Below, piece by piece: positions 5,987 to 57,367 of a stretch of DNA of 64,000 nt. Both the position numbers and the translations under genes were made by a program. The notes beneath the pieces were generated by a model. It did no database searches. It was given only the letters and a program-made list of their open reading frames with translations, and was not told the DNA's origin. The first letter of the stretch is position 1. Every line of letters starts with the position of its first letter. The DNA comes from a virus. Lineage: Duplodnaviria > Caudoviricetes. The stretch covers positions 64,959 through 128,958 of IMG/VR virus record IMGVR_UViG_3300006143_000333. One strand, 5' to 3'.

Positions 5987-6112
5987 ATAGATAATCGTTG
6001 GAAAGTACAAATAGCTGCGTGGATCACGACTGCGATAGGAGTTATTGCAGGAGTATATTTTACGAAGTCACCTACATGCTTGTGGGCATTTTTATTACCG
6101 TTATGGTGTTGA
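5987..6112 (+). CDS. 41-aa membrane peptide, ATA start
   Basis: SD aggaggtg, then ATA GAT AAT CGT TGG; hydrophobic; stop abuts next RBS. Confidence 0.6.
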   Translation: MDNRWKVQIAAWITTAIGVIAGVYFTKSPTCLWAFLLPLWC

Positions 6113-6125
6113 AGGAGCTGAGACT

Positions 6126-6422
6126 ATGAAATTGATGGAAGAAAAAATACAAGATGTGTTAATCGAAATATTAAAAGAGTTTGGCATTCCTGAAAATTTT
6201 TATTCTCTTGGAGGATATGCAGAAGAAACAGTTTGTCTTGAAAAGAAAGGGGACACTTGGATTGTATATGGTGGTGAAAGAGGGCAAAAGCATAATGTAA
6301 TAACACATATAAATTGTAAAAGTGCTTGTCTTGATCTTTTAAGCAGACTTGCAGAAACAAGAGTTGAAGAGGAAAGGATGAAGATCTTTTTCGAAATAAA
6401 ATGCAAAAAGATAGAAGAATAA
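6126..6422 (+). CDS. hypothetical protein, possible Imm59-like immunity protein
   Basis: YSL..EETVCLEK..WIVYGGERG pattern; RBS aaggag. Confidence 0.45.
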   Translation: MKLMEEKIQDVLIEILKEFGIPENFYSLGGYAEETVCLEKKGDTWIVYGGERGQKHNVITHINCKSACLDLLSRLAETRVEEERMKIFFEIKCKKIEE

Positions 6423-6468
6423 ATATAGATGAAAAATCTGTTTCATCGCAGGAGGTGATTTAGAGTGT

Positions 6469-6711
6469 ATGTTACAAACCTTTGAAGAAATGTGTGATAG
6501 CGAAGAGATTTGTAGTTATTGCTCTCATACAGAATATGGAGAATATAAGTCTGGTGTTACACCAAATGGATATTGGAGTTGTGAGGGTAGTTGGTGTAAA
6601 GACGCATATGAAGATTATTTAGATGAGAATGGAACAACAGATAATATTGTAAAATATGCAAGTGTTGTTAAATTGGTAAACAGGGAGGAATTTAATGGGA
6701 ACACCACTTAA
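6469..6711 (+). CDS. hypothetical Cys-rich protein
   Basis: SD aggaggtg; CxxC. Confidence 0.7.
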   Translation: MLQTFEEMCDSEEICSYCSHTEYGEYKSGVTPNGYWSCEGSWCKDAYEDYLDENGTTDNIVKYASVVKLVNREEFNGNTT

Positions 6712-7297
6712 ATTTGAGTTTGATTTTGATGAAGTATTTGAAGGAATCAAACAGGGTGTAATAAGAGAATTGTCAGAAACAAATTTTGATGAAGCCAAAG
6801 AATCAGCTATAAATCAGATTAAAAGTGAAGTAAAAGAAAAGCTGGCTCTTACATATAGTGATGAATATGCTTTAAAGGATGAAATTAAAAAGGAAATAAA
6901 AGAGAGAGTATTTGATAAACTTATTAAAGATATTGATGACAAATATTTAGAACAGTTTGAAGGTTACATAGAGTCACAGTTGACAAAGAATCCTGACAGA
7001 TTGGAGCAGTTAAAAAGAGAAATTAAAGATGGGTTGACTGAAAATCTATATGATGATTTATATCATTCTATTAAAGAAGAAGTGATTGGACAAGTTAGAG
7101 AAACGACTACTCAGTTATGTAATTTGATTGGTGGTAACAGTGTTAAAGCAGAGGGTTCTGATAGAACAATTTCTAAAAAGGAATATGAAGAGTTGATGGA
7201 TAGAAATAGAAAACTCAGTGCTTTAGAGGCTGGCGGTGTAGATAACTGGGAATGGTATAGTGAGTCTTTAAGTCAGTATTATGATGAAGAAGAATAA
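6695..7297 (+). CDS. hypothetical protein with C-terminal LEAGGVDNWEWY phage motif
   Basis: SD ggagg; conserved-looking C-terminus. Confidence 0.75.
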   Translation: MGTPLKFEFDFDEVFEGIKQGVIRELSETNFDEAKESAINQIKSEVKEKLALTYSDEYALKDEIKKEIKERVFDKLIKDIDDKYLEQFEGYIESQLTKNPDRLEQLKREIKDGLTENLYDDLYHSIKEEVIGQVRETTTQLCNLIGGNSVKAEGSDRTISKKEYEELMDRNRKLSALEAGGVDNWEWYSESLSQYYDEEE

Positions 7298-7315
7298 ATA
7301 AAAGAAAAATAGTAC

Positions 7316-7361
7316 AGAAAGGAACAAAGGTGCTGCAGCCGTGAGATGATCATACCTTTCT
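7316..7361 (+). promoter_or_regulatory. Leader element E1 (SD/anti-SD stem enclosing GCTGCAGC and ATGATCAT)
   Basis: agaaagg...cctttct stem; same layout as 8751 and 15451. Confidence 0.6.
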
Positions 7362-7373
7362 GGGTAAAGAAAA

Positions 7374-8261
7374 ATATTTGAGAATAATAATTATGAATTA
7401 TGGCAAGGTGATTGTTTGGAATTGATGAATGATATTCCTGATAAAACTATAGACGCAATAATAACGGATCTTCCTTTTGGGCAGACTGCTAGGAATGTTT
7501 GGGATATAGTAATTCCATTTAATGACTATATAAACTTAGAAGTCAGAAGGAAGCCAAAAATATTTTATAAAGATGATTTTCTTTTATGGTGTTATAAACA
7601 AGGAGAGACAGATTATAACGGAGCAGTTACATATTTTGAAGAAAATAAATCTATAGGATTGTGGACTCAGTATAAAAGAATTATCAAAGATAATGGTGCA
7701 ATTATTTTATTTGCAAATGGTATGTTTACTGCCGATCTTATGGAAAGCAATAGAGAGATGTGGAGGTACAATCTTGTCTGGGAGAAAACTCAACCTACAG
7801 GGTTTCAAAATGCTAATAGGATGCCAATGAGAAATCATGAGGATATGTGTGTATTCTATAAGAAACAACCAACATATAATCCTCAAAAAACAAGTGGTCA
7901 TATCAGAAAAGTTAGTACAGCTTCACACAAAAGAAATAGTAAGCAATCAACAAACTACAACGAAATCAAAAATCATACATATGACAGTACAGAAAGATTT
8001 CCTAAGTCAGTTTGGCTATTCGCCAAAGATACCCAAAAGTGTGCATTAACTCCAACTCAAAAGCCAGTAGCATTAGTAGAAGAAATTATTAAAACTTATA
8101 CTAATGAAGGTGATACTGTGTTTGATTCGACTGCTGGTAGTATGACAACTGGAGTAGCTGCTATTCGGACAGGTAGGAAGTGTATTTGTATTGAGAATAA
8201 CGAAGAGATATTTAATATCGGTAAAAATAGAATTACGGAATGTGTGAAAGAGAATAAATAA
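7374..8261 (+). CDS. N6-adenine/N4-cytosine DNA methyltransferase (beta class), probable ATA start
   Basis: YELWQGDCLELM N-terminus, TDLPF catalytic motif, PTQKP, FDSTAGSMTTG SAM motif; frame opens after TAA at 7365. Confidence 0.9.
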   Translation: MFENNNYELWQGDCLELMNDIPDKTIDAIITDLPFGQTARNVWDIVIPFNDYINLEVRRKPKIFYKDDFLLWCYKQGETDYNGAVTYFEENKSIGLWTQYKRIIKDNGAIILFANGMFTADLMESNREMWRYNLVWEKTQPTGFQNANRMPMRNHEDMCVFYKKQPTYNPQKTSGHIRKVSTASHKRNSKQSTNYNEIKNHTYDSTERFPKSVWLFAKDTQKCALTPTQKPVALVEEIIKTYTNEGDTVFDSTAGSMTTGVAAIRTGRKCICIENNEEIFNIGKNRITECVKENK

Positions 8262-8425
8262 AAGTATTCCGAAATGTTTTTTTAAGGACTATTGGATAGA
8301 GGTATTTCTAATGCCTTATGTATACGAGTTTGTCTATATAGAATGGGTGTGATATCCAATAGAAAGCCAATTTTATTGCAAGAAAATAAGGCAATCCGAT
8401 GACTGCCTTACCCTCTTAATGAACA

Positions 8426-8590
8426 CTACTTCTTATGTTTCTTCTTTTTGGACTTTGTGTTAATCTCAAAATCTTTGTATTTAATATGTAAGTTCCTGAG
8501 AACAAAGCCACTTACCAACACCAAGATTGATAGTGCCAAAATGACACAAGTAGGTGTCTGAAAAAGTTGAATGATAGATGAGATATTCAT
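8426..8590 (-). CDS. 54-aa single-TM basic-tail protein (antisense moron)
   Basis: RBS aaggagg; own promoter; hairpin at ~8384-8412. Confidence 0.7.
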   Translation of the reverse strand: MNISSIIQLFQTPTCVILALSILVLVSGFVLRNLHIKYKDFEINTKSKKKKHKK

Positions 8591-8640
8591 AGGCGCCTCC
8601 TTTTCAGGAGGAAAAATTAGCTTAATGTGTTCGTAAATAT

Positions 8641-8670
8641 AATTATAACACAAGTGACTAAAATAGTAAA
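8641..8670 (-). promoter_or_regulatory. sigma-A-like promoter TTTACT-17-TATAAT with extended TG
   Basis: Reverse complement reads tttact attttagtcacttgtgt tataat. Confidence 0.6.
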
Positions 8671-8750
8671 GAAATAGCAATGAAAATTTCGATTCATTGG
8701 TAGTTTAAAAGTAGAAGTAACAATTAAGCATGTGCGAAAAGTAATCAAAC

Positions 8751-8796
8751 AGGAGGAAATGAGGTTTCTGCGCAGAATAAATCATGATTTACTCCT
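8751..8796 (+). promoter_or_regulatory. Leader element E2 (SD/anti-SD stem enclosing CTGCGCAG and ATCATGAT)
   Basis: aggag...ctcct; aligns without gaps to E3. Confidence 0.7.
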
Positions 8797-8804
8797 AAAG
8801 TTAT

Positions 8805-9644
8805 TTGAAAGAAGAAAAGTACATAAAAAGTCCACTTAATTATGTGGGTGGAAAGCATAAATTGTTAAAAGAAATATTACCGCTATTCCCAAAGGATATT
8901 CACACGTTTGTTGATTTATTTGGAGGCGGATTTAATGTTGGTGTGAATGTAGAAGCAGAACATATTATTTATAACGATATATGTGAACCAGTAGTAAAAT
9001 TCCTAAGATGCCTATCTGGAAGCGATATTGATAAAATTCTTGCTGAAATTGATAAATACATAGAAAAATACAACCTAACAAAAGAAAATAAGGAAGGATA
9101 TTTGCAACTTAGAGAAGATTATAATAAAGGAACTAAATCCGCAATGAAGTTTTATACATTGCTTTGTTATGCATTTAATAATCAAATACGTTTTAACAAA
9201 AATGGCGATTATAATATGCCATTTGGTAAAGATAGGAGTAGTTTTAATCCTGCATTAAGACAGAAATTTATTGATTTTCATAAAAGGATTAATGTAATAG
9301 ACTGTGTATTTATAAATATTCCATTTGAAAGGTTTGATTTTTCGGAATTAGATAGCAAAGATTTTGTATATTGTGATCCGCCATACTTCAATAGTGTAGC
9401 AACTTATAACGAGCAGAACGGTTGGACTGAAGAACATGAAAAGAAATTGTTGTCTGTATTAGATGTGTTAAATGAAAAAGGCGTTAGATTTGCATTAAGC
9501 AATAATCTTAAATATGAAAATCCACTTTTGGATGAATGGAAAAATAAGTATAACATTCACTATTTGAATGGTAATTATAGCAATTGTAATTATCAAAAGA
9601 AAGATAAGAGTCAAGATATAGAAGTGTTAATTACGAATTATTAG
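8805..9644 (+). CDS. Dam/D12-class DNA adenine methyltransferase
   Basis: SPLNYVGGK, FVDLFGGG and YCDPPY motifs. Confidence 0.92.
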   Translation: MKEEKYIKSPLNYVGGKHKLLKEILPLFPKDIHTFVDLFGGGFNVGVNVEAEHIIYNDICEPVVKFLRCLSGSDIDKILAEIDKYIEKYNLTKENKEGYLQLREDYNKGTKSAMKFYTLLCYAFNNQIRFNKNGDYNMPFGKDRSSFNPALRQKFIDFHKRINVIDCVFINIPFERFDFSELDSKDFVYCDPPYFNSVATYNEQNGWTEEHEKKLLSVLDVLNEKGVRFALSNNLKYENPLLDEWKNKYNIHYLNGNYSNCNYQKKDKSQDIEVLITNY

Positions 9645-9666
9645 TCTTAAAACATCGGTTTCAAAG

Positions 9667-9812
9667 GGAGTCATTAGTTCATAACTGATGATTTCCATTC
9701 GAGAGATAGTTGCCTTACCAATTCTAACGACTCTCTTCAAACGGTAGGAATGGCGTTTACGACAGGTGGTAGTGAAGATCCTTCCTTGTACGAGAACAAG
9801 GGCAAACTACAC
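9667..9812 (+). ncRNA. candidate structured RNA
   Basis: Several nested hairpins in a ~170-nt intergenic gap. Confidence 0.35.
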
Positions 9813-9839
9813 TGAAATATAGAAAGGATAATTTAAAAA

Positions 9840-10091
9840 ATGAATAGAGATATAGGTGCTAAATTACCACAAACAAATTGTAGAACACCAATGCAACCTG
9901 TAAAGGAATTTGGTGAAAAAATTTGTGAGAATTGTGATAAAGAAGATGTGTGTATGTATAAAGAAGAGTGCATAAAAGCTATAAAGGATATTTTGGATAT
10001 CGAGAGTAGAACTAATGTGTTTATTAAAACACATATTGATTGTAAGAAGTGGAGTAAGAAGTCAAATATAAATGATATTGCTTACAGATAA
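9840..10091 (+). CDS. hypothetical Cys-rich protein, similar to 23557-23832
   Basis: RBS gaaagga; CxxC-x3-VCxY. Confidence 0.7.
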   Translation: MNRDIGAKLPQTNCRTPMQPVKEFGEKICENCDKEDVCMYKEECIKAIKDILDIESRTNVFIKTHIDCKKWSKKSNINDIAYR

Positions 10092-10118
10092 AATTTTCAT
10101 TTCAAAGGAAGGAGAAAT

Positions 10119-10614: not shown

Positions 10615-10649
10615 ATCAACTCTTTCATTGAGAAAATAGGAGGGATGAC

Positions 10650-10895: not shown

Positions 10896-10918
10896 TTAAA
10901 AGCACAAGGAGGAATCGC

Positions 10919-12597: not shown

Positions 12598-12634
12598 TCT
12601 TGAAATTTTGCTTTCATTGAGTCAGGGGGAAGAT

Positions 12635-16758: not shown

Positions 16759-17451
16759 ATTAAAAAATTAGTAGACCACATAAAAGAATCAGAACATTAT
16801 ATAAAAGAGTTTGCAACATGGGAAGCATCTGAGCAGATTATAGATGATAACAAATCATTTTGGATGTTAAGAAAGCCAGGAAGCCAATATCAGAAAGTTT
16901 GTCTTTATCGTGATGGTTGCAATATGTTTGTATATGGAGATTATGGACAATTCACATTCGACAACATGACTTGGACAGGCAGTGTTTATAATCTGGAATA
17001 TGATAACATCAGATATCAGATGGAGAAGTTAAACCATGAGAGCAAAGAATCTTTAAGAGTTTTTGATGAAGATAAATGCGTAAAGGATATTTATGATTGG
17101 TTAAAAGAACATCTTGAAGATTTATATGATGCTGAAGAAGATATTATCAAGAAGATTATCAAATTATTCAAAGAAAGTATATATGTGTATGATTCGAATA
17201 TAGATGATTTTTGTTATGAAAACAATATGGAAGAATTGAAAGATATACTTTACTTTACAAGAAACGCTTTAGAAAATGCTGATGAATATAATTGGAATGT
17301 TTTCTTGAGAAATAGTAATATAGAAGATTTTGATGATCCATGTGAGAGTTACTTATGGAATGCTGGCAAATGTATTCATCAAAGATATTTTATCTGTATG
17401 TATGCGTTGCAGGTTTGTGGTGAGAAGCTAAAAGATAGGAGTGATAAGTAA
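16759..17451 (+). CDS. hypothetical protein, probable ATT start
   Basis: SD ggaggt, then in-frame ATT 35 codons upstream of the track start. Confidence 0.65.
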   Translation: MKKLVDHIKESEHYIKEFATWEASEQIIDDNKSFWMLRKPGSQYQKVCLYRDGCNMFVYGDYGQFTFDNMTWTGSVYNLEYDNIRYQMEKLNHESKESLRVFDEDKCVKDIYDWLKEHLEDLYDAEEDIIKKIIKLFKESIYVYDSNIDDFCYENNMEELKDILYFTRNALENADEYNWNVFLRNSNIEDFDDPCESYLWNAGKCIHQRYFICMYALQVCGEKLKDRSDK

Positions 17452-18197
17452 TCAGTACAGTTAAGGATTTGTTTTTGGTAATTGAAGAAAAAATAAAAAT
17501 GGAAGAAAAAATAAAAGAGATTGTAAACAAACTGAAATTACAGGCAAAAAACTTGAAAGTCTCAGATTTAAGTGATTTCAGTTATGAGGAATGTAGAAAT
17601 TTATATAAGCAGATTCAATATTATATTGATGATGAAAATTTGCGAAATCAACTATCTACAATTGTTGAGAAGAAAAAGATTGAAAAATATCCAGAATTAC
17701 TGAAACCTACATATTATCCAGAAATTGATTCATTAGAGATTTCCGATTCAGAGAAGATTAGATTAGACAAAGCTGCACGATGGAATGTTAGAAATTATAT
17801 GAATGAAAATAATATCAAAAAAATGACATATCCACTATCTATTGACGATTTGGAAATGCTAAAAAGTATTGGTATTGTTGAGAAGAAATATAATTTCAGA
17901 TGCGAAAGCTGTGGAAGTTCATGTGATGTGATTTCAGAAAGTGATTTGGAAAAGTATAAAAGATTTTGGGAACTTTTTGAGCTTGAAAAACAGAAGATAA
18001 TTACGGATGAGCAATTAGATGAATTAGATCAGTTAGAAAAAGATGGATTTTATGAGATTTACTTATGCTGCTTGGATGAAGACGAGTGTGATGATGCTGA
18101 AATAACAAATGAAAAAGAATTATCTGATTACATGAGAAATGTAGAAGTAGTTTATAAGGTGGTAAAGAATCCAGATTTGACTTATGAGAAATTATAG
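17451..18197 (+). CDS. hypothetical protein (CxxC), possible ATC start
   Basis: SD aggagtg, then in-frame ATC. Confidence 0.65.
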   Translation: MSTVKDLFLVIEEKIKMEEKIKEIVNKLKLQAKNLKVSDLSDFSYEECRNLYKQIQYYIDDENLRNQLSTIVEKKKIEKYPELLKPTYYPEIDSLEISDSEKIRLDKAARWNVRNYMNENNIKKMTYPLSIDDLEMLKSIGIVEKKYNFRCESCGSSCDVISESDLEKYKRFWELFELEKQKIITDEQLDELDQLEKDGFYEIYLCCLDEDECDDAEITNEKELSDYMRNVEVVYKVVKNPDLTYEKL

Positions 18198-22330: not shown

Positions 22331-22786
22331 ATAGAAAAAAGGATTTTAGATGTATGCTGCGGATCAAGAATGTTTTGGTTTGATAAGCATAATGAAGATA
22401 CAGTATTTATGGATAACAGAATACTACATGATACATTGTGTGATGGTAGAAAATTAAATGTTGAACCAGATGTCATAGGAGATTTTAGAAATATACCTTT
22501 TAATGATGATACTTTCAATATGGTCGTATTTGATCCTCCTCATCTTTTGAAAGTTGGAGAAAGTTCATGGTTGGCCAAGAAGTATGGAAAACTAACTGAG
22601 AACTGGAAAGAAGATTTGAAGTTGGGATTCAAGGAATGTATCAGGGTACTAAAGCCAGGAGGAAGTTTGATTTTTAAGTGGAATGAACAACAAATAAAAT
22701 TGAAGGAAATATTGAAGTTGGTTGATATTGAACCTCTTTTTGGTAATAAAAGAGCAGATACACATTGGGTTGTGTTTATGAAATAG
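22331..22786 (+). CDS. small SAM-dependent (probable DNA) methyltransferase, ATA start
   Basis: ILDVCCGSRMFWFDK, VVFDPPH, RVLKPGG; SD aaggagtg. Confidence 0.85.
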   Translation: MEKRILDVCCGSRMFWFDKHNEDTVFMDNRILHDTLCDGRKLNVEPDVIGDFRNIPFNDDTFNMVVFDPPHLLKVGESSWLAKKYGKLTENWKEDLKLGFKECIRVLKPGGSLIFKWNEQQIKLKEILKLVDIEPLFGNKRADTHWVVFMK

Positions 22787-22833: not shown

Positions 22834-23031
22834 ATATTAAAAAGATTTTTACTATGGATTTTAGTCATTATTCTTGGTGTTATAGTATTGTCACTACTCT
22901 ATGCTTTGGGATATATGTCAGCAACAAGTAATGTAAGTTCATTTGTACGAATAGTTATTGGAACTATAGCATTATGTATTGCAGATATAAAAAGTTATTT
23001 GCAATGGAAAGTTATTAATTGGAACAAATAA
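22834..23031 (+). CDS. 65-aa two-TM protein, ATA start
   Basis: SD gggaggt; hand translation ILKRFLLWILV... Confidence 0.55.
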   Translation: MLKRFLLWILVIILGVIVLSLLYALGYMSATSNVSSFVRIVIGTIALCIADIKSYLQWKVINWNK

Positions 23032-23856: not shown

Positions 23857-24039
23857 ATAAAATTTGAAACAAGCAAAAGAATAGATAAATGGGTAGAGAA
23901 GCATAGAAAGCAAGGTTGTGTATCTCATGCAACAGCAGGTGAACAGTTTGTATATGAATTTTTACCAAGTGGCATTGTAGAGTGTCAAACAGTCAAATGT
24001 ATGTGTTGCAATGAAGAATTTACTGATTATGTAGATTGA
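23857..24039 (+). CDS. 60-aa hypothetical protein, ATA start
   Basis: SD gaggtg; hand translation fills the gap. Confidence 0.6.
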   Translation: MKFETSKRIDKWVEKHRKQGCVSHATAGEQFVYEFLPSGIVECQTVKCMCCNEEFTDYVD

Positions 24040-24408: not shown

Positions 24409-24537
24409 ATGGGACTTACATGTAAACCATTAGGCAAAATGAGAAGTGTCACAAGAAAGTTAGAGAATCATTTAGCTGAAGAAGCGAAGTTACAGAAAGA
24501 GAAAAAGGAAAGTAAGAAAGATAAGACAAGCAGATAG
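24409..24537 (+). CDS. 42-aa basic peptide
   Basis: RBS aggag, ATG. Confidence 0.5.
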   Translation: MGLTCKPLGKMRSVTRKLENHLAEEAKLQKEKKESKKDKTSR

Positions 24538-24730
24538 ATTAGATACATTTTATGATGAATTAAAGAGAATACACAAACAATATTTTTGTGATTGGCGTTT
24601 TGGTCAGCTTTGTAGTAATTTTTTCGGTTGGCTCATGTCAGAGAAGAAAGTGGATTTATTCTTTCCAGAAGAAGATAAGATGATAGAGTATATCCGAGAA
24701 TATGCCGAGAGTTCTGGTAGCAACAAGTAA
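24521..24730 (+). CDS. conserved-looking phage protein (DWRFGQL motif), ATA start
   Basis: IRQADRLDTFYDELK..DWRFGQL. Confidence 0.6.
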   Translation: MRQADRLDTFYDELKRIHKQYFCDWRFGQLCSNFFGWLMSEKKVDLFFPEEDKMIEYIREYAESSGSNK

Positions 24731-35500: not shown

Positions 35501-35878
35501 GAATATATGTGGGAATTTGATACATTGTCTATGTTCCTGACGAATGACCCGTTAAAAGATGCCTACAAATATACAAAGACAGATTGGGATATGGTAGAGA
35601 ACGGAGATAAGACTACATTATTCTGTGTCATTGTTGATATTAAAAGAAAGAAAGATAAAAATGGAAATCAATTTGCATATTTAGACCTGTATACACCATT
35701 TGGTATTGTTGAAGCAACTATATGGTCAAGCCAGTTAAAACAATATAGCGATGACATTAAGAAAGGAAATTGTCTTGCAATACTCGGAAGAAAGAGAGAA
35801 GAACATTTCTTTGTAGAGAAAGTAAAACCATATAATACTTGGTTGGATCAGATGAGGAAGAAAGGAGTGGCAGTATAA
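32561..35878 (+). CDS. dnaE: DNA polymerase III alpha subunit
   Basis: PHP domain (LHIHT, TDHG), SRGSG, DFDWD, KMDYLGL, FNRGH. Confidence 0.95.
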   Translation: MFTLLHIHTTKGSLLDSILTVEEAVKFASENGMKAMAITDHGSMASFVDFVKECNKYNIKPIIGNEIYEVDDMWKKADTKEYTQPRYHLILLARTQEGYKNLIKITSVSRTEGLYKKPRIDIKYIQENGLGKGIICLTACQAGRLSRYLVNDKYEEAEQYINKLKNTFDYVVCELQSHNTEDQANANQLIYDFSQKHNLPYTITTDAHMLSDSFKESHAMFVEIGEGREVGESYTDCYLQTENEIYEKLSDQFSEDIIRKGIEESVNITDIIENIDIGLNKGNIMPKINIENGYDNHEEYLRYLVFKTFDEKFGHMSKEDQEIRRQRLETELPVLYAVDYTDYFIMLYMLAKEARKRKIPLGYSRGSGANCLCLFMLNVTQIDSVRWDLDFSRFANLGRKSMADFDWDISKRRRKEMVEISEELFGKENVAPIATFNTLSTKVAIRDIGKVLDEKDYSPYYKQIPYKLRDEVAKMIPTIKTLNDLGEEEEKDVLLKDILNKNEKLKEVYEKFPLWFKYVMDVEGLPKSMGRHAAGTLITPTPVTDYCPLCYDSEKNIMIELEMHNAMDDLGLVKMDYLGLETLDIVDDTLKMAGITWDDVDINHLNLEDKEVFEKVYKNGNTVGIFQMESAEGRRMCIEAKADNVEDVIVVNAANRPGTKESFPTYCQNKLNPENVSILHEDLRELFGKTHYILLYQEQALQLFRHAGFPEEQVDNARRAIGKKKKEVMEQLEVDFRAGLTQKGWNNEQLIEIWQLMLKQAEYCFNRGHAVAYGLLSYLTAYLKTHYTIYFMAALLTSKSDKVQKISIVINDCKRLGIKVSPPNVNKSDIEFTALPENNEILFGLLAVKGLGESIVDKIIENRPYQSMNDFIEKVADKTAIITLIKAGAIPTKDKMLSLKKYANRLFERKEYKPVTTLPSPYSKLIPFGLNVDDYRDGKKVNKEALLIDYNKAKEKLFIEEQNQKYKNHMIEFQEKYAKDEYMWEFDTLSMFLTNDPLKDAYKYTKTDWDMVENGDKTTLFCVIVDIKRKKDKNGNQFAYLDLYTPFGIVEATIWSSQLKQYSDDIKKGNCLAILGRKREEHFFVEKVKPYNTWLDQMRKKGVAV

Positions 35879-38151
35879 ATTTGTTTGAGAACGATGAAGA
35901 TATTTTGAAATTTAAAGCAGTCATAACTTATGAACGCTACTATAACTCAGATACCACTTGGGGCGTATATGGTTTTTACACAAACGATGATATACCTCAA
36001 TATACAAAAGAAACAAAAATGGATTTACCATTTGAAGATAGGAAAGAAGTCGATCCAGATAAAAAGTTTAGTTCTTTGGCTGGCAAAATGCAGGAATTGG
36101 TTGTCGGTGGAGAATATATGGTAAAGGCGAGGTATAAGTATGACAAAACATATGGTCATCAGTATACACCAATAGCCATATATGCTCTTATACCACAAAC
36201 AAAAGAGTCACAGTTAATGTTTCTGCAATCCATTATTTCACCTTGGATTGCGGAGAATTTAATAAGTGTGTACCCGAATGTAGTAAATGATGTGGCAAAT
36301 GGCACGTTAAAAGAAATTGATTATGATTTAGTAAAGGGAGTTAGAGAACTTACTTGGAACAGGATTAAGGACAAGATCATCAATAATTATCTGATTTCAG
36401 ACATTATCACAATGTTAAAGCCATTAGGAGTTACATATACGATGATTAAAAAACTTCTAACAGATGAACCTAATCCGGCATTATTAAAACAGCAATTAGA
36501 AGAAAATCCTTATATACTTACAAAAATTAATGGGCTTGGGTTTAAGAAAGTCGATGACTTGGCATTAAAATTGAAGCCAGAACTCATAAATACAACTGAA
36601 AGATTGGTTGCGTTTATAAAATACTATTTCACAGATTTGGGAGAAAGTAGTGGTCATACTTGGTGTTCAGTTAAAATTCTAAAGTCGGCAATAAGTAATA
36701 GTGTTCCTGAGTGTGCCGATAAAACGGATTGGTTATTGGAAAACAATGAGTTTTTACACATATCAGAAGATAGAGTAGGGCTGAAATATTATCACGATAT
36801 CGAAATGCAGATTTATAATATACTGCTTGAAAAGTCTAAGAAACAGACGGACATTAATATCTCTGATGAAAAAATAGAACAGGCGATCAGAAATGCAGAA
36901 GAAGAACAAGGATTTCAATATGTAGTAGAACAGCTTGGCACAATCAATAAAAGTTTACATAGAACAATCAGCCTAATAACTGGAAAAGCTGGCACTGGTA
37001 AGACTTCCATTATGAGAGCGATTGTAAAAGCATATACAGAGAACCAATTTACATTAACGGCATCTGCTTTATCAGCTATGGCAGCACAGAGAATAACTGA
37101 AGCAACATCATTTCCTGCTATGACGATTCATAGGACATTAGGATGTAAAGGTTTGAATAAGTTTGATTTTAATAAGGATAATCACTTGATTACAAGCGTT
37201 GCATTTCTTGATGAGGGAAGTATGGTAAATGCCAGTTTATTTCTCCATTGGTTAGAAGCTATTGATGATAACACAAGAATTATTATTTCTGGTGATCACA
37301 AGCAGTTACCGCCAATAGGATTTGGTAATGTATTTTCAGATTTGATAGAAATGTTTGATGATACAGTGGTAAGCAAATTAGTGAAACCGATGAGACAAGC
37401 TGAGAAATCTGGTATTTTAGTAGACGCAAATCTAATCCGTGAAAATATCAACCCTATAACTGAAAAGTTACAACCGAGAATTATTCATGGTGAGTTACAA
37501 GATATGTATTATATGTTCCGTACAAATAGGCAGTCATTGTTTGATATTGCAGTTAAGACATTCCTAAAATCGGTAGAATCTGATGGAATTGATAATGTTG
37601 TTATTGCAGTTCCACGAAGAAAAGATTGCTTGAATAGTACAAATGAGTTAAATAAAACGATTCAGGAAAAGTTGTTAGGAGATGTATTGCAAAGTATATC
37701 TGGTTTTGAGATGACATTTAAATTGGGTGCTAAAGTAATGCAGACAGTAAATGATTACGATAAGAATGTGTTTAATGGAGAAATAGGATATATAACAGAA
37801 ATCAGTGAGAGACAAAATGGTAAAAAGAAAGAAGAGTATTGCGTAGTAACATATACTGATATTTTTGGTAAGGATAAATTGATTGAGTACACAAAGAAAG
37901 AACTGGCAGCTTTGGATCTTGCTTATGCGATGACGGTACATAAGTTACAGGGAGCCGGTAGAAAGATTGTGATTGGTATTATTGATAATACGCACCATCA
38001 GCTTTTAGACAACTGTATGTTATATACACTACTGACAAGAGCAAAGAAGAGATGCTTATTATTGGCAGAGCCACAAGCATTTTTACAGTGTATTCGCACA
38101 AGTCATAATAAACGGAACACATGGATGATGTTAGAAGAAAAAGTAGCATAA
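35875..38151 (+). CDS. RecD2-like helicase (start ATA 35875 or TTG 35881)
   Basis: GKAGTGKT, DEGSM, GDHKQLPPI, AMTVHKLQG, YTLLTRAK. Confidence 0.9.
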   Translation: MNLFENDEDILKFKAVITYERYYNSDTTWGVYGFYTNDDIPQYTKETKMDLPFEDRKEVDPDKKFSSLAGKMQELVVGGEYMVKARYKYDKTYGHQYTPIAIYALIPQTKESQLMFLQSIISPWIAENLISVYPNVVNDVANGTLKEIDYDLVKGVRELTWNRIKDKIINNYLISDIITMLKPLGVTYTMIKKLLTDEPNPALLKQQLEENPYILTKINGLGFKKVDDLALKLKPELINTTERLVAFIKYYFTDLGESSGHTWCSVKILKSAISNSVPECADKTDWLLENNEFLHISEDRVGLKYYHDIEMQIYNILLEKSKKQTDINISDEKIEQAIRNAEEEQGFQYVVEQLGTINKSLHRTISLITGKAGTGKTSIMRAIVKAYTENQFTLTASALSAMAAQRITEATSFPAMTIHRTLGCKGLNKFDFNKDNHLITSVAFLDEGSMVNASLFLHWLEAIDDNTRIIISGDHKQLPPIGFGNVFSDLIEMFDDTVVSKLVKPMRQAEKSGILVDANLIRENINPITEKLQPRIIHGELQDMYYMFRTNRQSLFDIAVKTFLKSVESDGIDNVVIAVPRRKDCLNSTNELNKTIQEKLLGDVLQSISGFEMTFKLGAKVMQTVNDYDKNVFNGEIGYITEISERQNGKKKEEYCVVTYTDIFGKDKLIEYTKKELAALDLAYAMTVHKLQGAGRKIVIGIIDNTHHQLLDNCMLYTLLTRAKKRCLLLAEPQAFLQCIRTSHNKRNTWMMLEEKVA

Positions 38152-39402: not shown

Positions 39403-40611
39403 ACGAAAGTACAAAGGTCAGAACAAAAAGTAATTAAAAGAGATCATCCCAAATTCAAGATAATTGATGAAATGTGTTTCCGTTCTAAGAATCTATATAA
39501 CGAAGCAAATTATATAATTCGTCAAGAATTTATTAAAAATGGGAACTACATCAATTATTATAATTTGAACTTTGAATTTAAGACACATGAAAACTACAAA
39601 TTGTGTTTCAGTCAACCAGCAAATTGTACTTTACGGCTGCTTGATAAGAACTGGAAGTCATACTTCAAAGCAATTAAGGATTGGAAAGAGCTTCCTGATA
39701 AATATTTAGGAATGCCCAAACTTCCAAAGTATCTTCCTAAAGATGGTAGATTCCCTTGGATGATACCAAACAATCAACTTGTTTATGATTATGAAAAATC
39801 TACCATTTATATAAGGAATCGTCTACTGAATGATTTTGATTGGAAATGTAGATGTTTAGGCAGACCAATACAAATACGTTTTATTCCGAAAGGAACTTGC
39901 TATGTTATGGAGATAGTTTATGAAATAGAAGTTCCAGAACAACCGTCTGAAAGCAAACATATAGCTGCTATTGATATTGGGGTGGATAATCTTATAACAA
40001 TGTCAAACAATATCGGCAAAAAGCCAATTATTGTTAATGGTAAGGTTTTGAAGTCCATCAATCAGCAATATAACAAGCAAAGAGCTAAACTGCAATCTGA
40101 ACTGAAGAAAAGGAATAACAGGAATTGGAGTAAACGTCTTGATTCTTTAACATTTAAGAGATTTTGCAGAGTCAAAAATTATATGCATAATACATCAGCT
40201 TTTGTTGTGAAGTGGTGCAAAGAAAACAACATTGACACTTTAGTAATTGGCAAGAATGATACTTGGAAACAGAAAAAGAAAGGTATGCAAAATTTCGTAT
40301 TTATTCCTTATGAGATGTTATTAGGACAACTGAAATATAAATGCGAAAATATAGGAATTAAATATGTAGAAGTAAATGAGGCATACACATCAGGAACAAG
40401 TTATTTGGATGACGAACTGCCAACAAAAGAGAATTATAACAAAGAGAGACGTATTCAAAGAGGATTATTTCAGGCAAAAGATATGTTAATTAATGCGGAT
40501 GTCAATGGAAGTCTGCAAATTATGAGCAAGGTATTCCCAGATTCCTATACAGGATATGGGATAGAGGTGGATCTAACGCCTACCATTATAAATGTTGCGA
40601 AAGCAACGTGA
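39403..40611 (+). mobile_element. tnpB: TnpB-only IS200/IS605-family (IS1341-like) element, probable ACG start
   Basis: NLYN, IDIGVDN (RuvC-I), EAYTS, INADVNG (RuvC-III); hairpin at 40623-40640; no tnpA nearby. Confidence 0.88.
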
Positions 40612-44107: not shown

Positions 44108-46032
44108 TTGGACAAAGTAAAAAGAATAAAGGAATTATCAAAATTGTTACAAAAAGCATCATATGCGTATTATGGGCGAGATAATCCTATTATGAGTGAC
44201 AAGGAATATGATGATCTATATGACGAATTATCAAAATTAGAAGTGGAGGCTGAATATGTACTGGCAGGATCTCCAACACAAAAAGTCCAAGGATATGTAT
44301 TAGATGGTTTTAGCAAAGTAGAGCATTCAAAGCCAATGCTTAGTGCTAATAAAACCAAAGATATAAAAGAAATTGAAAAGTTTATTAAAGGTAAGGAGTT
44401 TTATGGTTCATATAAGCTTGATGGACTTACAGTAGTAGCACGCTATAAAGACGGGAAATTTGTACAAGGAATTACAAGAGGAACGGGAACGGTAGGAGAA
44501 GATATCACAGAACAATGCAAATTTATAAAAAATCTTCCTATGGCTATTTCATATAAGCAAGATTTAGAGTTACGAGGAGAATGTGTAATATCGTGGAATG
44601 AATTTAAACGGATCAATGAGGCTTTAGATAGTCCTTATTCACATCCACGCAATTTGGCGCAGGAACAATACGTAATCTTGATTTGAATATTTTAAAGAAT
44701 AGGAACTTATCTTTTATTGTATTTGAATGTGTAACAGATATTGGGGAGAATAGTAAGTCAAAATCTCTTAGTTATATCAACAATATTGGATTTGAAATTG
44801 TTCCATTTACAAAATTAGATTGTACAATAGAACAAGCAAATGATGCACTCCAACCAGAGTTTTATCAGTATCCAACAGATGGAATCATTTTTGAGTTAGA
44901 CAGTAGAAAACTATCTGAATCATTAGGGGTAACGTCACATCATGAATGCTGCAGAATGGCGTTGAAGTGGGAAGATGAGTTGTATGAAACTACATTAAAA
45001 GATATTGAATGGAATACTTCAAAAACAGGACTTGTCAATCCTGTGGCAGTTTTTGAACCAGTAAATTTAGATGGGGCGATTACTACCAGAGCGACATTAC
45101 ATAATATTTCTTATATAGAAGATTTACAGTTGGGTATTGGAGATACAATTCAAGTATATCGTGCAAATATGGTAATTCCAAAAGTACACAGCAATCTTAC
45201 GATGAGTAATACATGGAAACTTCCAGATAAATGTCCTTGTTGTGGAGGAGATGTAGAAATACATAATGAAAATGGAAGCAAGACATTACATTGTATGAAT
45301 CCTGATTGTAAAGCAAAATTGCTTGGAAAACTTGTTCACTTTGTAAGTAAAAATGCAATTAATATAGATGGGCTATCGGAGCAGACATTACAGAAATTTA
45401 TTGATTTAAGATGGTTAGAATCATTCAAAGATATTTATTACTTGTCAGAACACAAAGAAGAAATATATAAACTTGACGGTTTTGGTAAGAAATCTGTTGA
45501 TAAATTGTTAGAGAGTATTGAAAAAAGTAGAAATACTACATTGGATAGATTCATTTATGGACTGTGTATTCCTCTGATTGGCAGAACAGCAAGTAAAGAA
45601 ATTGCAAAATTCTTTAACTATGATTATGAAAAGTTTAGAACAGATGGAATAGTAACGCATTATAGTCAAATTGATGGATTTGGAGATAATATGAACCAGT
45701 CGTTACATGATTATTTGCGAGAAAATCACATGAAGATATCTACATTGGCTGATGAATTTATTTTTGAAACGAAGAGTGAGAGTAATAATAATGCAAACTT
45801 ATCAAACAAAACTTTCGTAATTACTGGTAGCTTAAATCATTATAAAAACCGTGACGAACTTGTAAATATTATTGAACGGTTTGGTGGTAAAGTATCTAGT
45901 TCTGTGTCAACTAAAACATCATATTTGTTAAATAATAATGTTACAAGCACATCTGGGAAAAATAAAAAAGCAATTGAATTAGGAATACCTATTATATCCG
46001 AAGAAGAATTTGATAAAATTTTATTAAAATAA
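44108..46032 (+). pseudogene. ligA: NAD-dependent DNA ligase split by a 1-nt deletion at ~44659 (or sequencing error)
   Basis: KLDG, TRG, ELRGE, PRNLA|GTIR, DG, Zn finger, HhH, BRCT. Confidence 0.88.
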
Positions 46033-47338: not shown

Positions 47339-47842
47339 ATTAGTAGAAGAAAGAATAAATATATCGAACTTGAAAACGAATATCTAATAGAATTGTATTT
47401 TCCAAATAGTAATGAAATTGAAGACTATGCTCATATTTCTAAGATTGACTATGAGAAATGTAAAGAAGTGTACTGGAAGAAAAGTGAGTATGGATATGCT
47501 CGTGGATATTTTAATAAAAGAGCAGTATTGCTACACAAATTTATTACTAATACAGACGATACAATTCTAATAGATCACATAAATAGAAATAAATTGAATT
47601 GTACAAGGAATAATCTAAGATTTGCAGATAAAAGTATAAACAGCTTAAATAGAGATTTACAATCAAATTCAACTACTGGCTATAAAGGAGTTTCTTTAGA
47701 TAAAAGAAGAAATAAATATAGAGCCTATTTAAAGAAAAATGGTAAACAAATATGGTTGGGCTATCATGATACATTAGAGGAAGCTGTGCTTGCTAGGCAA
47801 AATGGATTTGAAAAAATATATGGTAAAGATATTTATATTTGA
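47339..47842 (+). CDS. HNH-AP2 homing endonuclease, probable ATT start
   Basis: LHKFI..IDHINRNKLNCTRNNLR, then GYKGV..YRAY..LGY...EAVLAR. Confidence 0.85.
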   Translation: MSRRKNKYIELENEYLIELYFPNSNEIEDYAHISKIDYEKCKEVYWKKSEYGYARGYFNKRAVLLHKFITNTDDTILIDHINRNKLNCTRNNLRFADKSINSLNRDLQSNSTTGYKGVSLDKRRNKYRAYLKKNGKQIWLGYHDTLEEAVLARQNGFEKIYGKDIYI

Positions 47843-48430: not shown

Positions 48431-48882
48431 ATAGAACCGTGTATCTCGGTGGTGCCATGAGTTGTTATTTTAATACAGATCAGCACGACTATCCTAAAAA
48501 GTGGAGAGAAGATGCAAAGAAATATGTTAAGCAACTCTATGACGGCATTATTCTTATATCACCAACAGATTTCTATGAAATAGGGAAAAATTACCATAAG
48601 AAAGAATCTGAAACAATGCGATTTGATCTTAGGATGGTAAGAGAAGCAGATATTGTTCTTGTAAATATAAAGGATCTACATAGTTCACTTGGAACATCAG
48701 ATGAAATTTTATATGCATTTATCAGTGGTAAACCTGTTATTGGATTCCTAGAAGATGAATCAGAAGTAAAAAATATTCATCCATGGAAGATTGAACAGAT
48801 TGACAGGATTGAGACTGGTGAGGATGCTATGAAACATGCAATAGATTATATCTATAGATATTATGTGGACAGGAATAATTAA
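48427..48882 (+). CDS. nucleoside 2-deoxyribosyltransferase-like protein
   Basis: VYLGG, DL..V..ADIVLV, SLGTSDEI..A..GKPV. Confidence 0.75.
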   Translation: MNRTVYLGGAMSCYFNTDQHDYPKKWREDAKKYVKQLYDGIILISPTDFYEIGKNYHKKESETMRFDLRMVREADIVLVNIKDLHSSLGTSDEILYAFISGKPVIGFLEDESEVKNIHPWKIEQIDRIETGEDAMKHAIDYIYRYYVDRNN

Positions 48883-49093
48883 AAAGGAGGATTTAGAAAT
48901 TATTAATACAAGCCATAAACTGGCAAAAGAATTATTAAGTAAACCAGATGGATTTATTACTGCTGTACATAAAGGAGATGAATATATTATTGAAAATTTA
49001 AAAAGGACAATTACACATGCAAATAACGATGACAGTGTGATACATTGGGCAGTAAATTTACGAGATGGTGGAAAGGGAAATATTAAAAGATGA
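48863..49093 (+). CDS. hypothetical protein
   Basis: Overlapping coupled ORF. Confidence 0.6.
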   Translation: MWTGIIKKEDLEIINTSHKLAKELLSKPDGFITAVHKGDEYIIENLKRTITHANNDDSVIHWAVNLRDGGKGNIKR

Positions 49094-51252: not shown

Positions 51253-51274
51253 TTGATGACGGAGGATGTAGTTA

Positions 51275-53482: not shown

Positions 53483-53499
53483 AACGGAGGTACTGATAT

Positions 53500-55518
53500 A
53501 TAGATAATATTAAATGTATATTATCGGATTCTGTTGATGTAAAACTTGGAAGCAAGAATATGAAATACTATAAAGAACTTGGTTACAATGGTAATTTTGG
53601 AGATGTCATTCATGTAAAAGTGGATGACATCAAACCAACATCACATGTCAAAATTAATACAGAATGTCCGATGTGTAAAAAGGAACATAGAATTCAATAT
53701 TGTGATTATTATAAACAACAACATACGCTGTGTAATTCTTGTGCTACAACATATTTTAACACTAAAAATAATGTTTGTATCTATTGTGGTAAAAAGGCTA
53801 CTAAAATATTTGATGGTCATTATTATTGTAGTAAACATATTGAACATATGAAAAAATATGGAAAGTGTTTAGCAACTACTTGTTGTGATTTGAATGAAAT
53901 TTCATATGAGAATGATTATGCCATACTACATGTTAGAGGTTCTGATCAAATTGATATAGCATTAGTTAAAATTGATTTGAATGCAGTTGATTATGTAAAG
54001 CATATCCATTGGCTATATAGCAAGACAGACGGATTTATTGTATCAAAAGATAATATCAAATTACATAGGTATTTATATCGAAATTTGATTGGCGATATAG
54101 AATGCAATTATATTTTGTTTAAAAATAATGATATGTATGATATGAGATGTAAAAACTTGATACAATCTAATGAAAAAACTTTCAGATTATTTTCAGATGA
54201 TAATACTGATATAGATGGGATATTTATAAAGGATAATTTACAAGTTGGAATTATAGACGACACTCATTATAAATTATTAAATATACGAGATTTAAAAGAT
54301 ATTGAAAGTAACAGAAAACCCATTATTGTTGAGGTTGGCGAAAATGGATGCTGGAATTGTATAAGTCATAGTCAACATCCAGATGGTTATGTTTATGTAT
54401 ACTCTGGAAAGAAAAAGATAAAACTCCATAAACGTGTTCTTGAAATAAAATTAGGAAGAGAACTAAAAATTAATAATGACGAACTAACGAGACATATGTG
54501 TGACAATCCGCAATGTTGCAATCCAGATCATTTAATTATAGGAAATTCACAAGAAAATCATGACGACATGGTTTTGCGTGGAAGAGGATATTGGCAAAAT
54601 CATACGGGATACTTTAAATGGTATGAACGAGAAGGTAGTAAGCAAAAAAAACAACCCAAACCATTATTAACAGAAGAAATAATTATTAATATTTATAAGG
54701 ATGCATTACAAAATTGCATTCCTTATAGGCAATTAGATAAAAAATATGGAGTTGGGAGGGGAGTTTCTTCAAATATTGCAAATAAAAAGACTTATAAAAA
54801 TATCACTGAAAATATTGATGTCATAGATAATAGACACATATTAGATAATACAAGAAAAGAAGATTATATTATGGTTAAGAATCTTAAAGATGGTAATTTA
54901 TATACCAATAGAGAAATTGCAGATTTAACGGGGATAAATAGAGAAACTGTTAGAAATATCGTTAATGATACATGGACATATTCATCCAAAGATATTGAAA
55001 ATTATATTGATAAATTTGTTGGCGATGGATCTGGTGTTATCTATTATATGGATATTAAATACGACACTATTGTAGATGGTGTTGGTTTCAGAAACACAGT
55101 ATATTGTGCAAAATGTGACATCTTATGCAAAGGATGTCATAATCCACAAAGTCACAATATAAAAAATGGAAGACCTAGTTCTGTTAATAATTTAGCAAAA
55201 TTATTACTTGGAAATGGTAATGATATTACTTTCTCAGGAGGGGAATGCAGTTTACAAGCAAAAGCGTTTATTAAATTAGCACAAATGTTAAAAAACGAAA
55301 ATAAAAATATCTGGTTATATTCAGGACATACATATGAAGAATTAATTGGCGACTCTGTTACAAGTAAATTACTAAATTTAGTGGATGTTCTGGTAGATGG
55401 TAGATTTGAAAATGATCTTAGAAATACTGATTTACTTTTTAAAGGATCTTCTAATCAAAGGATTATTGATTTAAATGAGACTAGAAAGGTTGGAGAGGTT
55501 GTTTTATGGAGAAGATAA
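53500..55518 (+). CDS. nrdG: HNH endonuclease-NrdG fusion, probable ATA start
   Basis: HMCDNPQCCNPDHL HNH motif; C-terminal DGVGFR, CDILCKGCHN, FSGGE, LVDGRF, GSSNQ. Confidence 0.85.
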   Translation: MDNIKCILSDSVDVKLGSKNMKYYKELGYNGNFGDVIHVKVDDIKPTSHVKINTECPMCKKEHRIQYCDYYKQQHTLCNSCATTYFNTKNNVCIYCGKKATKIFDGHYYCSKHIEHMKKYGKCLATTCCDLNEISYENDYAILHVRGSDQIDIALVKIDLNAVDYVKHIHWLYSKTDGFIVSKDNIKLHRYLYRNLIGDIECNYILFKNNDMYDMRCKNLIQSNEKTFRLFSDDNTDIDGIFIKDNLQVGIIDDTHYKLLNIRDLKDIESNRKPIIVEVGENGCWNCISHSQHPDGYVYVYSGKKKIKLHKRVLEIKLGRELKINNDELTRHMCDNPQCCNPDHLIIGNSQENHDDMVLRGRGYWQNHTGYFKWYEREGSKQKKQPKPLLTEEIIINIYKDALQNCIPYRQLDKKYGVGRGVSSNIANKKTYKNITENIDVIDNRHILDNTRKEDYIMVKNLKDGNLYTNREIADLTGINRETVRNIVNDTWTYSSKDIENYIDKFVGDGSGVIYYMDIKYDTIVDGVGFRNTVYCAKCDILCKGCHNPQSHNIKNGRPSSVNNLAKLLLGNGNDITFSGGECSLQAKAFIKLAQMLKNENKNIWLYSGHTYEELIGDSVTSKLLNLVDVLVDGRFENDLRNTDLLFKGSSNQRIIDLNETRKVGEVVLWRR

Positions 55519-55877
55519 TTATAAATGATTACATACGAGGGGAACCATTAGCAGAAGAAAATCTTGACGATGTATTAGATCTAGTCAATAAAATCCGTCT
55601 TTCAATGCCACAGAAATCTATATGGCTTTATACAGGATATGCATGGGAACATATATTTGACGAAAAATGGCATTATCATCCACAAACCATGGAAAAATTA
55701 TCTATAAATAGATGGAAACGACAGCAAATAGTTTCTGAGTGCAATGTATTAATAGATGGAAGATATTTAGATAATCAAAAAGATATTACACTCAAATGGC
55801 GTGGTAGTAATAATCAAAAAGTTATTGATATTCAAAAATCAATACAGCAAGGAGAAATTGTATTATGGTGCAATTAA
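55506..55877 (+). pseudogene. orphan 3' half of a second nrdG
   Basis: GEPL, IWLYTGY, LIDGRY, WRGSNNQ but no CxxxCxxC. Confidence 0.8.
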
Positions 55878-56140
55878 AGAAAGAAGACCGATTATACTAT
55901 GCGCGCATTATTCCTAAAACAAGAATTTATGAAGTTTGTGAAGTGATTGTTAGAACAGTAAAGGATACATGGTTCGTTACTGTAGATAAGAGAGATAAAC
56001 GTGCATATCTCTTTAATAAGAGCGATTTTAATAAGATTGTATTTGAAGATAGGAACGTTGCCTTGTCAAAGGTTAAAGAAGCCGAGGAGAATGATATATC
56101 AAGAACTAAAAATGAAGAATTGTATTATGAAGAATATTAA
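55865..56140 (+). CDS. hypothetical protein
   Basis: RBS aaggag. Confidence 0.7.
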   Translation: MVQLKKEDRLYYARIIPKTRIYEVCEVIVRTVKDTWFVTVDKRDKRAYLFNKSDFNKIVFEDRNVALSKVKEAEENDISRTKNEELYYEEY

Positions 56141-56200
56141 AGCCGAGATAATATAAAACATGAGTATACATTAATAAAAAAGAAAAAGGTGGTGAATTGA

Positions 56201-56551
56201 ATGAAGAGGTTGACAAATGAACAAGGTGAACTTATATCATGCACAGATTGTTCAGATAATGATTGTTATATTTGTGTGAATGTTATTTGTGCGTTAGAAA
56301 AATTAAAGCATTATGAAGATTTAGAATCGCAATTAGAGAAAGTCTGCGGCGAAGAACTTGAAGAATCTGTGGAATATGGAAGGGTAAGTCTCGATAATTC
56401 CAACAATTCAAATGGTGCTAGAGTATATTTGACACATGAAGAAACGAAAATAGTTATATCTGTACTTGAAGAAATTCAAAAATATAGAAAAATTGGAACG
56501 ATTAAGGAATGCGAAGAAGCAAGAGATAAGCAGAGGTCAAAAATTGGATAA
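56201..56551 (+). CDS. hypothetical protein
   Basis: MKRLT...LKHYEDLE...YRKIGT pattern. Confidence 0.7.
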   Translation: MKRLTNEQGELISCTDCSDNDCYICVNVICALEKLKHYEDLESQLEKVCGEELEESVEYGRVSLDNSNNSNGARVYLTHEETKIVISVLEEIQKYRKIGTIKECEEARDKQRSKIG

Positions 56552-56725
56552 TTGGATGAAGTAAGAAATAATCTGTTTAGCAGCAAACATAAAACACTTC
56601 TATATGAGTTTAAATAATAAAATTTACAAGAGTGCTACATGCTGATAGACTTCATCATCGAAATTGCAGGCTCGATGATACAACGGTTTGTTCTATTGGA
56701 AGAAAAAATCTGGGAGTGATGAAAT

Positions 56726-57367
56726 ATAGCAAATTATTTAATATCGCACTATAAAGGCAAATACCGTATAAAATGTGAATATGATAAGACTTTAAACCAG
56801 TTCCCAAGAAAATTAGATGGAACATATGAAGATATAGATTGTTATATAGATTGTTATAATAATATAAAGATATTTTACTTTGGTAAATCAACTTTAGAAG
56901 CATATATCCCATCAAAAGGCAGAGGACATAATATAATAAAGGCGATAGAGGACGAACTGGGAAAAGGAATTATATATAATAAGGAAGAAAACGATTCAGA
57001 AGTACTTTTTCATTTTAAAGCAAAAGATATGCACAAGTTAGAAAAATATTTGAAACCTAAGACAAGTGGTTCAAATATAAGCCCATTTAGTTCAAAGAAT
57101 TTACCTAAAAATAAGTTCTATAAAATACCAGATGAAGATTTGATAAATTATAAAAATATTGTTGAAAATATAGAACAAAATCAGATAATAGTATTAAGTC
57201 ATATAACAAATTCATATTTGAAAACTTTAGTAATGAAAAATAATACTTGGGAGGATATTAAAGCTGATATGGCACTGAAGGGACTATCTGGAAAGAACTA
57301 TATTCATTCACTAGGAAAATGGAAAAATTACATTGAATATTTGGAAAAGATGATAAATAAAGTATGA
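56726..57367 (+). CDS. hypothetical protein, ATA start
   Basis: SD gggagtg; 101 extra stop-free codons upstream of the track ATG. Confidence 0.7.
   Translation: MANYLISHYKGKYRIKCEYDKTLNQFPRKLDGTYEDIDCYIDCYNNIKIFYFGKSTLEAYIPSKGRGHNIIKAIEDELGKGIIYNKEENDSEVLFHFKAKDMHKLEKYLKPKTSGSNISPFSSKNLPKNKFYKIPDEDLINYKNIVENIEQNQIIVLSHITNSYLKTLVMKNNTWEDIKADMALKGLSGKNYIHSLGKWKNYIEYLEKMINKV

Follow-up and report, generated by a model that had tools for sequence, protein, structure and literature searches.

A stretch of 64,000 nucleotides of DNA (hereafter the window), which forms the second half (64959-128958) of the 128,958-bp Caudoviricetes virus record IMGVR_UViG_3300006143_000333, carries a series of genes whose reading frames open at ATA, ATT, ATC or ACG, each one position off AUG, mostly behind a Shine–Dalgarno (SD) sequence (Table 1). 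The record is only ~71% complete, has a G+C content of 32%, and holds almost all of its genes on the + strand. Within the window lie a replication and nucleotide module (SSB, RecJ, Pol III alpha, a RecD-like helicase, NAD ligase and NrdD/NrdG) and many small accessory genes.

Table 1. Near-cognate open reading frames (ORFs) of the window and the integrase gene; positions are window coordinates, lengths are in amino acids (aa), spacers in nt and SD energies in kcal/mol
Position	Strand	Proposed start	Product	SD site, spacer, energy	Other features
5987..6112	+	ATA (putative)	41-aa membrane peptide	AGGAGGTGA, 8 nt, -16.1	strongest SD of the set
7374..8261	+	ATA	N6/N4 DNA methyltransferase	none, -3.8	Pfam PF01555
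16759..17451	+	ATT	230-aa protein annotated without a function	AGGAGGT, 7 nt, -13.9	
17451..18197	+	ATC	248-aa protein without assigned function	AGGAGTGAT, -13.2	
22331..22786	+	ATA	small S-adenosylmethionine-dependent (DNA) methyltransferase	AAAGGAGTGA, -10.8	
22834..23031	+	ATA (possible)	65-aa membrane ORF	GGGAGG, 3 nt, -11.3	
23857..24039	+	ATA	60-aa Cys-rich protein	GAGGTGAT, -15.7	
24521..24730	+	ATA (doubtful)	69-aa ORF	11 nt, -6.2	coding score 0.12 (low)
35875..38151	+	ATA or TTG	RecD-like helicase	AAAGGAG(T), 6 nt before ATA	
39403..40611	+	ACG	TnpB (IS605 OrfB / Cas12f-like)	GAGGTGG, -13.2	Pfam PF01385, PF07282
41579..41872	+	ATA	97-aa protein without assigned function	AAAGGGTGAT, -13.0	
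47339..47842	+	ATT (plausible)	HNH_3 + AP2 homing-endonuclease-like	GAGGAGTGAT, -13.4	Pfam matches
48899..49093	+	ATT	64-aa protein	AAAGGAGG, 8 nt, -12.2	absent from the preliminary list
53500..55518	+	ATA	672-aa HNH-endonuclease-like region fused in frame to NrdG	GGAGGT, 9 nt, -13.2	
56726..57367	+	ATA	213-aa protein without assigned function	-10.5	TGA stop two codons upstream
58667-59884			tyrosine integrase		

Near-cognate codons and their SD sites

SD strength was calculated as the duplex energy with the 3' end of 16S rRNA (the anti-SD), for which random positions gave a mean of -3.5 kcal/mol and a 5th percentile of -8.7 kcal/mol. All 14 coordinates at which a preliminary description of the window had placed non-canonical starts carried the codon named there, in frames that were open upstream of the first ATG, GTG or TTG and were closed 0-15 codons further upstream (0-6 codons at most sites, 15 at 22331). 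The SD sequences that it had described were strong at 11 of the 14 sites (-10.5 to -16.1 kcal/mol, aligned spacing 6-10 nt). Scanning the whole genome brought to light a further site in the window, ATT 48899 (frame closed 18 codons upstream), and one outside it, ATA at genome position 33740, where a second TnpB copy begins.

That these genes start at the next downstream ATG, GTG or TTG, with the upstream open frame and its SD site arising by coincidence, is very unlikely. Canonical codons exist in most of the ORFs and are only 2-8 codons away for 35875 and 17451, but no SD site serves them (nearly all score -0.5 to -3.6 kcal/mol, and two ORFs beyond the main list -5.0 to -5.3), and alignments with the proteins of relatives begin at the first residue of the long form, with the exception of 35875, so that their conserved N-termini are beyond the reach of any canonical start. 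The next ATG is 35 codons downstream at 16759 and 23 codons downstream at 39403, in both cases without an SD; the first ATG of 23857 is at codon 49 of 61, in a frame closed one codon upstream, as is that of 53500; and the ATA of 41579 directly follows a TAA stop, with the first canonical codon 37 codons downstream. A downstream start would remove methylase motif I and a conserved 'GDC' N-terminus, the latter lying upstream of any canonical codon of 7374, and at 56726 it would leave untranslated the 101 conserved codons that precede the first canonical one. In the methylase at 22331, the 'ILDVCCG' motif precedes the first ATG. The sole in-frame canonical codon of 5987 falls within the SD itself, and an ATG at 48863, ahead of 48899, is without an SD and lies inside the upstream gene.

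That near-cognate starts behind SD sites are non-random was borne out by counts, among them the comparison with host genes that had been proposed. A strict pipeline (orphan SD of -10 kcal/mol or below, no SD-served canonical codon nearby, at least 15 codons to the next canonical codon) found ATA, ATT, ATC or ACG in 11 of the 198 ORFs of the phage; 200 kb of chromosome from the candidate host, Eubacterium plexicaudatum ASF492, yielded 4 among 506 ORFs. Over 1.16 Mb of related phage loci, the codons most often found at orphan SD clusters were ATA (16) and ATT (15), followed by AAA (10); inside genes, AAA outnumbers ATA threefold. A cruder codon-level test gave a modest enrichment (Fisher p = 0.026 for ATA). 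TTG starts are frequent as well, as had been noted, and account for 18 of the 60 SD-served canonical starts in the window; across the record they cluster in its second half, where 18 of 26 SD-served TTG starts fall, compared with 40 of 122 ATG starts.

For three of the short ORFs, 5987, 22834 and 24521, no homologues were found, as they are too short or too rare, and protein databases built on gene callers would miss them anyway. Judged on sequence features, the ATA start of 5987 is plausible, and that of 22834 is held with low confidence.

Start positions in homologues

Alignment with homologues, the decisive evidence for near-cognate starts, fixes the start position of 10 genes. For 16759 (ATT), the aligned codon was ATT in L178 (86% identity) and L176 (71%), ATC in L217 (72%), and ATG in L177 (61%). 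For 17451 (ATC), all three relatives found, L204 (82%), L206 (73%) and L205 (69%), had ATT at the aligned position, each with a strong SD of its own and a frame closed 1-9 codons upstream. ATA was retained at 23857 in L001 (83%), L085 (92%) and L218, with different upstream DNA in each, and at 41579 in L259 (94%) and L260 (79%), the latter again with different upstream DNA and with the SD GAGGTGAT. For 48899, L062, L069 and L219 carried an in-frame ATT 9 nt after their own SD, three codons upstream of the aligned position. At the methylase 7374, ATA was conserved in L077/L222 (93%) and L217, and aligned with a TTG start in L027. A non-AUG codon was thus conserved in diverged homologues of 16759, 17451, 23857, 39403, 41579, 48899 and 7374, and in five of these families (16759, 17451, 23857, 41579 and 48899) weak codons were kept or exchanged at 60-90% protein identity behind different upstream DNA.

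The widest series came from TnpB, for which a clade of 27 loci at 59% identity or above, in about 16 distinct contexts, was assembled from Clostridia phages and genomes (39403-40611, genome 33740-34948, L179-L186 and L240-L256). The aligned start codon was ACG in 11 loci, ATA in 8, ATT in 4, TTG in 3, GTG in 1, and ATG in none, and all starts stood behind an SD of -8 to -18.5 kcal/mol. The second copy of this phage (genome 33740-34948, outside the window) starts at ATA and is 55% identical to the copy at 39403, which starts at ACG. Homologues from bacterial genome assemblies, taken without regard to whether they lie in prophages, also kept weak codons.

Only near-identical relatives were available for three genes. 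The ATA of 53500 was identical in L021 and L220 only (97-100% identity); 47339 has copies in three other assemblies, all 98% identical, and a search found no more diverged relatives; and 35875 has one relative, 97% identical, and a homologue in Sundance phage that aligns from residue 2.

A different pattern was found at 22331 and 56726, where every diverged relative had ATG or TTG. Among the 80 relatives of 22331, the aligned position was ATG (L097, 79%: MEKTILD vs IEKRILD), TTG (32 loci), or ATG one codon later, and for 56726, L065 (79% identity over all 213 residues) had ATG at the exact position (MANYLISHYKG vs IANYLISHYKG). The preliminary description had taken ATG in homologues as a sign of decay or error; ATG or TTG was found for these two genes, and non-ATG codons were kept for 16759, 17451, 23857, 39403, 41579 and 48899. 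Neutral decay, in which ATG mutates to ATA by a G-to-A transition in dispensable accessory genes of an AT-rich genome, some of them dying or silent, with no selection on the weak codon, would account for 22331 and 56726, and it is in keeping with the predominance of ATA, the transition product, in the site list and of accessory genes in the affected set. Decay does not fit the six weak-codon families or the TnpB clade and is unlikely as an account of the whole: the frames are intact over 60-672 codons, SD sites are kept or are stronger, weak codons last at 60-80% protein identity in six families, and TnpB carries five different weak codons and never ATG. The change from ATA to ACG takes two steps and would pass most simply through ATG, yet no ATG was observed. 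A start at an out-of-frame upstream ATG followed by a frameshift was also considered for 22331 and 56726 and was ruled out by eye: it would place the SD at a spacing of 2-4 nt, and no such pattern recurs at the other sites.

An error of sequencing or assembly, or a genetic code that reads ATA as Met, has nothing in its favour besides the oddity of the pattern and carries negligible probability: identical bases were found in independent metagenome, isolate and metagenome-assembled genome (MAG) assemblies, and internal ATA codons aligned with Ile in 49%, Val in 16% and Met in 3% of cases (otherwise with Leu among the matches), by which reassignment of AUA to Met was ruled out. A special phage-encoded initiator tRNA was likewise ruled out, since the single tRNA(CAU) of the phage (genome 40818-40893, + strand) is not initiator-like, having a G1-C72 pair and lacking the three G-C pairs of the anticodon stem. 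This tRNA (anticodon CAT), the only one of the record, lies outside the window and is of elongator type (C29-G41, A37, A38, A73); these features presumably fit tRNA-Ile2, which is lysidine-modified and reads AUA, as well as tRNA-Met. A tRNA search within the window found none, and an Rfam search gave no matches.

Proposed low-output initiation and its possible role

With a probability of about three in four, we read the phage sites as genuine near-cognate initiation codons whose low output would act as a constant dose limiter. A strong, often extended SD:anti-SD helix would position the 30S subunit with AUA, AUU, AUC or, for TnpB, ACG in the P site, and initiator fMet-tRNA would read this near-cognate codon with one mismatch; initiation would therefore be inefficient, at roughly a tenth of AUG by analogy with Staphylococcus aureus reporters. 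The result would be a constant limit on proteins that are needed in small amounts or are harmful in excess, comprising orphan DNA methylases, homing-type HNH endonucleases, the RNA-guided nuclease TnpB and several small accessory proteins. This role is suggested by the make-up of the affected set: a pair of DNA methylases, a pair of HNH endonuclease genes (one joined to NrdG), both TnpB copies and a number of small proteins. By contrast, TTG or ATG opens the genes for Pol III alpha, RecJ, SSB, NrdD and the ligase. What was seen directly is the codons with their SD sites and the stops that close the frames upstream, together with the conservation of the N-termini and the way in which relatives retain weak codons or swap one for another.

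Several points weigh against this reading. Initiation itself, its low output, and selection for low output are what we infer from those observations. The SD pattern has weak exceptions at 24521 (-6.2 kcal/mol), at 22834, where a strong SD has a spacer of just 3 nt, and at 7374, which had already been described as having no adjacent SD. The stronger SD sites of near-cognate genes (median -13.1 vs -10.25 kcal/mol for ATG genes) are a biased result, because the sites were chosen for possessing an SD. The start of 35875, listed with a 'perhaps' in the preliminary description, is ambiguous, because a TTG (35881, 12 nt from the SD) stands two codons downstream of the ATA. At 22331 and 56726, the ATA could reflect a mutation that is recent, tolerated or inactivating. 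ACG reportedly is a very poor initiator in Escherichia coli, so that only traces of TnpB may be produced, or its synthesis may take another route.

Near-cognate starts that keep protein levels low are known from E. coli, where infC and pcnB start at AUU, the former being autoregulated by IF3 and the latter limiting poly(A) polymerase translationally. The phage genes resemble them in having a near-cognate start for a low protein level, with IF3 discrimination as the presumed brake. E. coli infC differs in that its product feeds back on the start from which it is itself translated; no such link exists for the phage genes, which encode methylases, nucleases and proteins without assigned function, and a search for the IF3_N and IF3_C domains found neither in the record. 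In four Lachnospiraceae or Clostridia genomes (L236-L239), two of which carry related prophage pieces, infC has the same layout of GGAGGTG, 9 nt and ATT (ATC in one), with no SD-served ATG, so the ribosomes of the likely host plausibly use such sites.

The preliminary description had proposed a gate that keeps lytic genes low in the lysogen and is released if the phage lowers IF3 fidelity. In its general form, a regulon of weak starts that are held off in the lysogen and freed when IF3 discrimination drops, through host physiology or a phage factor, this is improbable. Near-cognate starts are indeed the class against which IF3 discriminates, infC of the likely host clade itself starts at ATT or ATC, and a single phage carries 12 or more genes of this kind; in S. 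aureus, moreover, the AUA start of ccpN goes from ~10% to 30% relative efficiency in rich medium (PMC13009471). Against such a regulon, the genes concerned lie outside the lytic core, and the replication core uses TTG or ATG, apart from the ambiguous start of the RecD-like helicase; the record, at its ~71% completeness, holds no IF3 domain; TnpB copies from bacterial genome assemblies carry the same codons; no common leader motif beyond the SD was seen; and silencing in lysogens normally operates at transcription. A weak start codon has its effect whatever the state and is not in itself a switch. What stands of the proposal is the expectation of lowered translation and sensitivity to IF3, by analogy with infC, pcnB and the S. 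aureus reporters (10-30% of AUG; PMC13009471); both the lysogenic gate and its release by the phage found no support.

The closest parallel is S. aureus, in which retapamulin-assisted ribosome profiling (Ribo-RET) and reporters showed that AUA and AUU starts with an extended SD give ~10% of AUG, and up to 30% in rich medium, in infC (AUA), ccpN (AUA), cvfC1 (AUU) and citZ (AUA) (Nat Commun 2026, PMC13009471). In both cases the host is a low-GC Gram-positive, AUA or AUU follows a long SD by 7-10 nt, and relatives keep the arrangement; reduced output was measured in S. aureus. They differ in that S. aureus has four sites per bacterial genome, in housekeeping or regulator genes, whereas the phage has at least 10-12 sites in ~100 genes, on methylases, nucleases, TnpB and small ORFs, and includes ATC and ACG. 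The mechanism is already known; what stands out is the density (at least 10 sites in ~100 genes, compared with 4 sites for all of S. aureus) and the classes of gene affected. Literature searches on ATA/AUA starts in phages and on TnpB start codons found nothing specific.

Low-output initiation at these sites would mean that roughly a tenth of the genes of this phage are missed or shortened by gene finders limited to ATG, GTG and TTG, including the catalytic N-termini of methylases and two TnpB genes, and that annotation of Clostridia-type phages should admit ATA, ATT, ATC and ACG behind strong SD sites. It points to a repeated rule by which selfish or potentially toxic DNA-acting phage enzymes (orphan methylases, HNH endonucleases, TnpB) would be throttled at initiation, and it matters for expressing TnpB from natural genes, given the five weak codons behind very strong SD sites and the absence of ATG from all 27 loci of the clade. 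A bolder extension, which we consider doubtful, is that the near-cognate set forms one translational regulon that follows IF3 activity or the growth state of the host, a dial on methylases, homing nucleases and TnpB that is independent of the repressor, or, more narrowly, that the TnpB clade has been selected never to carry ATG, as a built-in brake on an RNA-guided nuclease.

Methylase leaders, the HNH–NrdG gene and the wider record

Upstream of the methylase 7374, a short ORF in another frame (MIIPFWVKKNI, 7346-7381) overlaps the ATA, and its M-x-M-P-F-W pattern is kept in two relatives with different stops. A palindrome, GCTGCAGC, lies ~40 nt upstream in the 7320-7381 region and is found upstream of relatives with ATG starts too. 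The overlap and the palindrome may reflect translational coupling and/or a methylase operator. In a third N6/N4 methylase, encoded outside the window at genome 56205-57107, a strong orphan SD immediately precedes the opening of the frame, and an ATA-TTG pair aligns with the ATG-TTA N-terminus of relatives (ILETNKIY vs MLEINKIY).

The product of 53500 joins an HNH/His-Me endonuclease-like region of some 500 aa (matched by HNH families at residues 264-490) to a complete NrdG (residues ~499-672; Fer4_12 match at 525-656), directly after nrdD. In relatives, NrdG has its own ATG start right after nrdD, and an internal ATG at 55048 is a possible separate NrdG start.

Mosaic relatives of the phage are common in IMG/VR, and a megablast search with 41 kb of the window against GenBank phages gave no match. 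Since related prophage pieces sit in a mouse-gut Lachnospiraceae MAG and in E. plexicaudatum ASF492, the phage is most likely a large temperate phage of a mouse-gut Lachnospiraceae host. The prophage of ASF492, a cultured strain, has copies of 39403 (ACG), 53500 (ATA) and 7374 (ATA). The first half of the record is not recognisable as a structural module.

The NAD-dependent DNA ligase is split over two overlapping frames (44108-44686 and 44632-46032), with a -1 frame change that separates 'PRN' from 'AGTIRNLD' within a conserved motif and no obvious slippery heptamer. A search for a relative spanning the junction found none, and the split could stem from a frameshift mutation, from programmed frameshifting or from faulty assembly. 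At the start of the window, positions 9-2444 encode an 811-aa P-type cation-transporting ATPase, an unusual cargo for a phage record.

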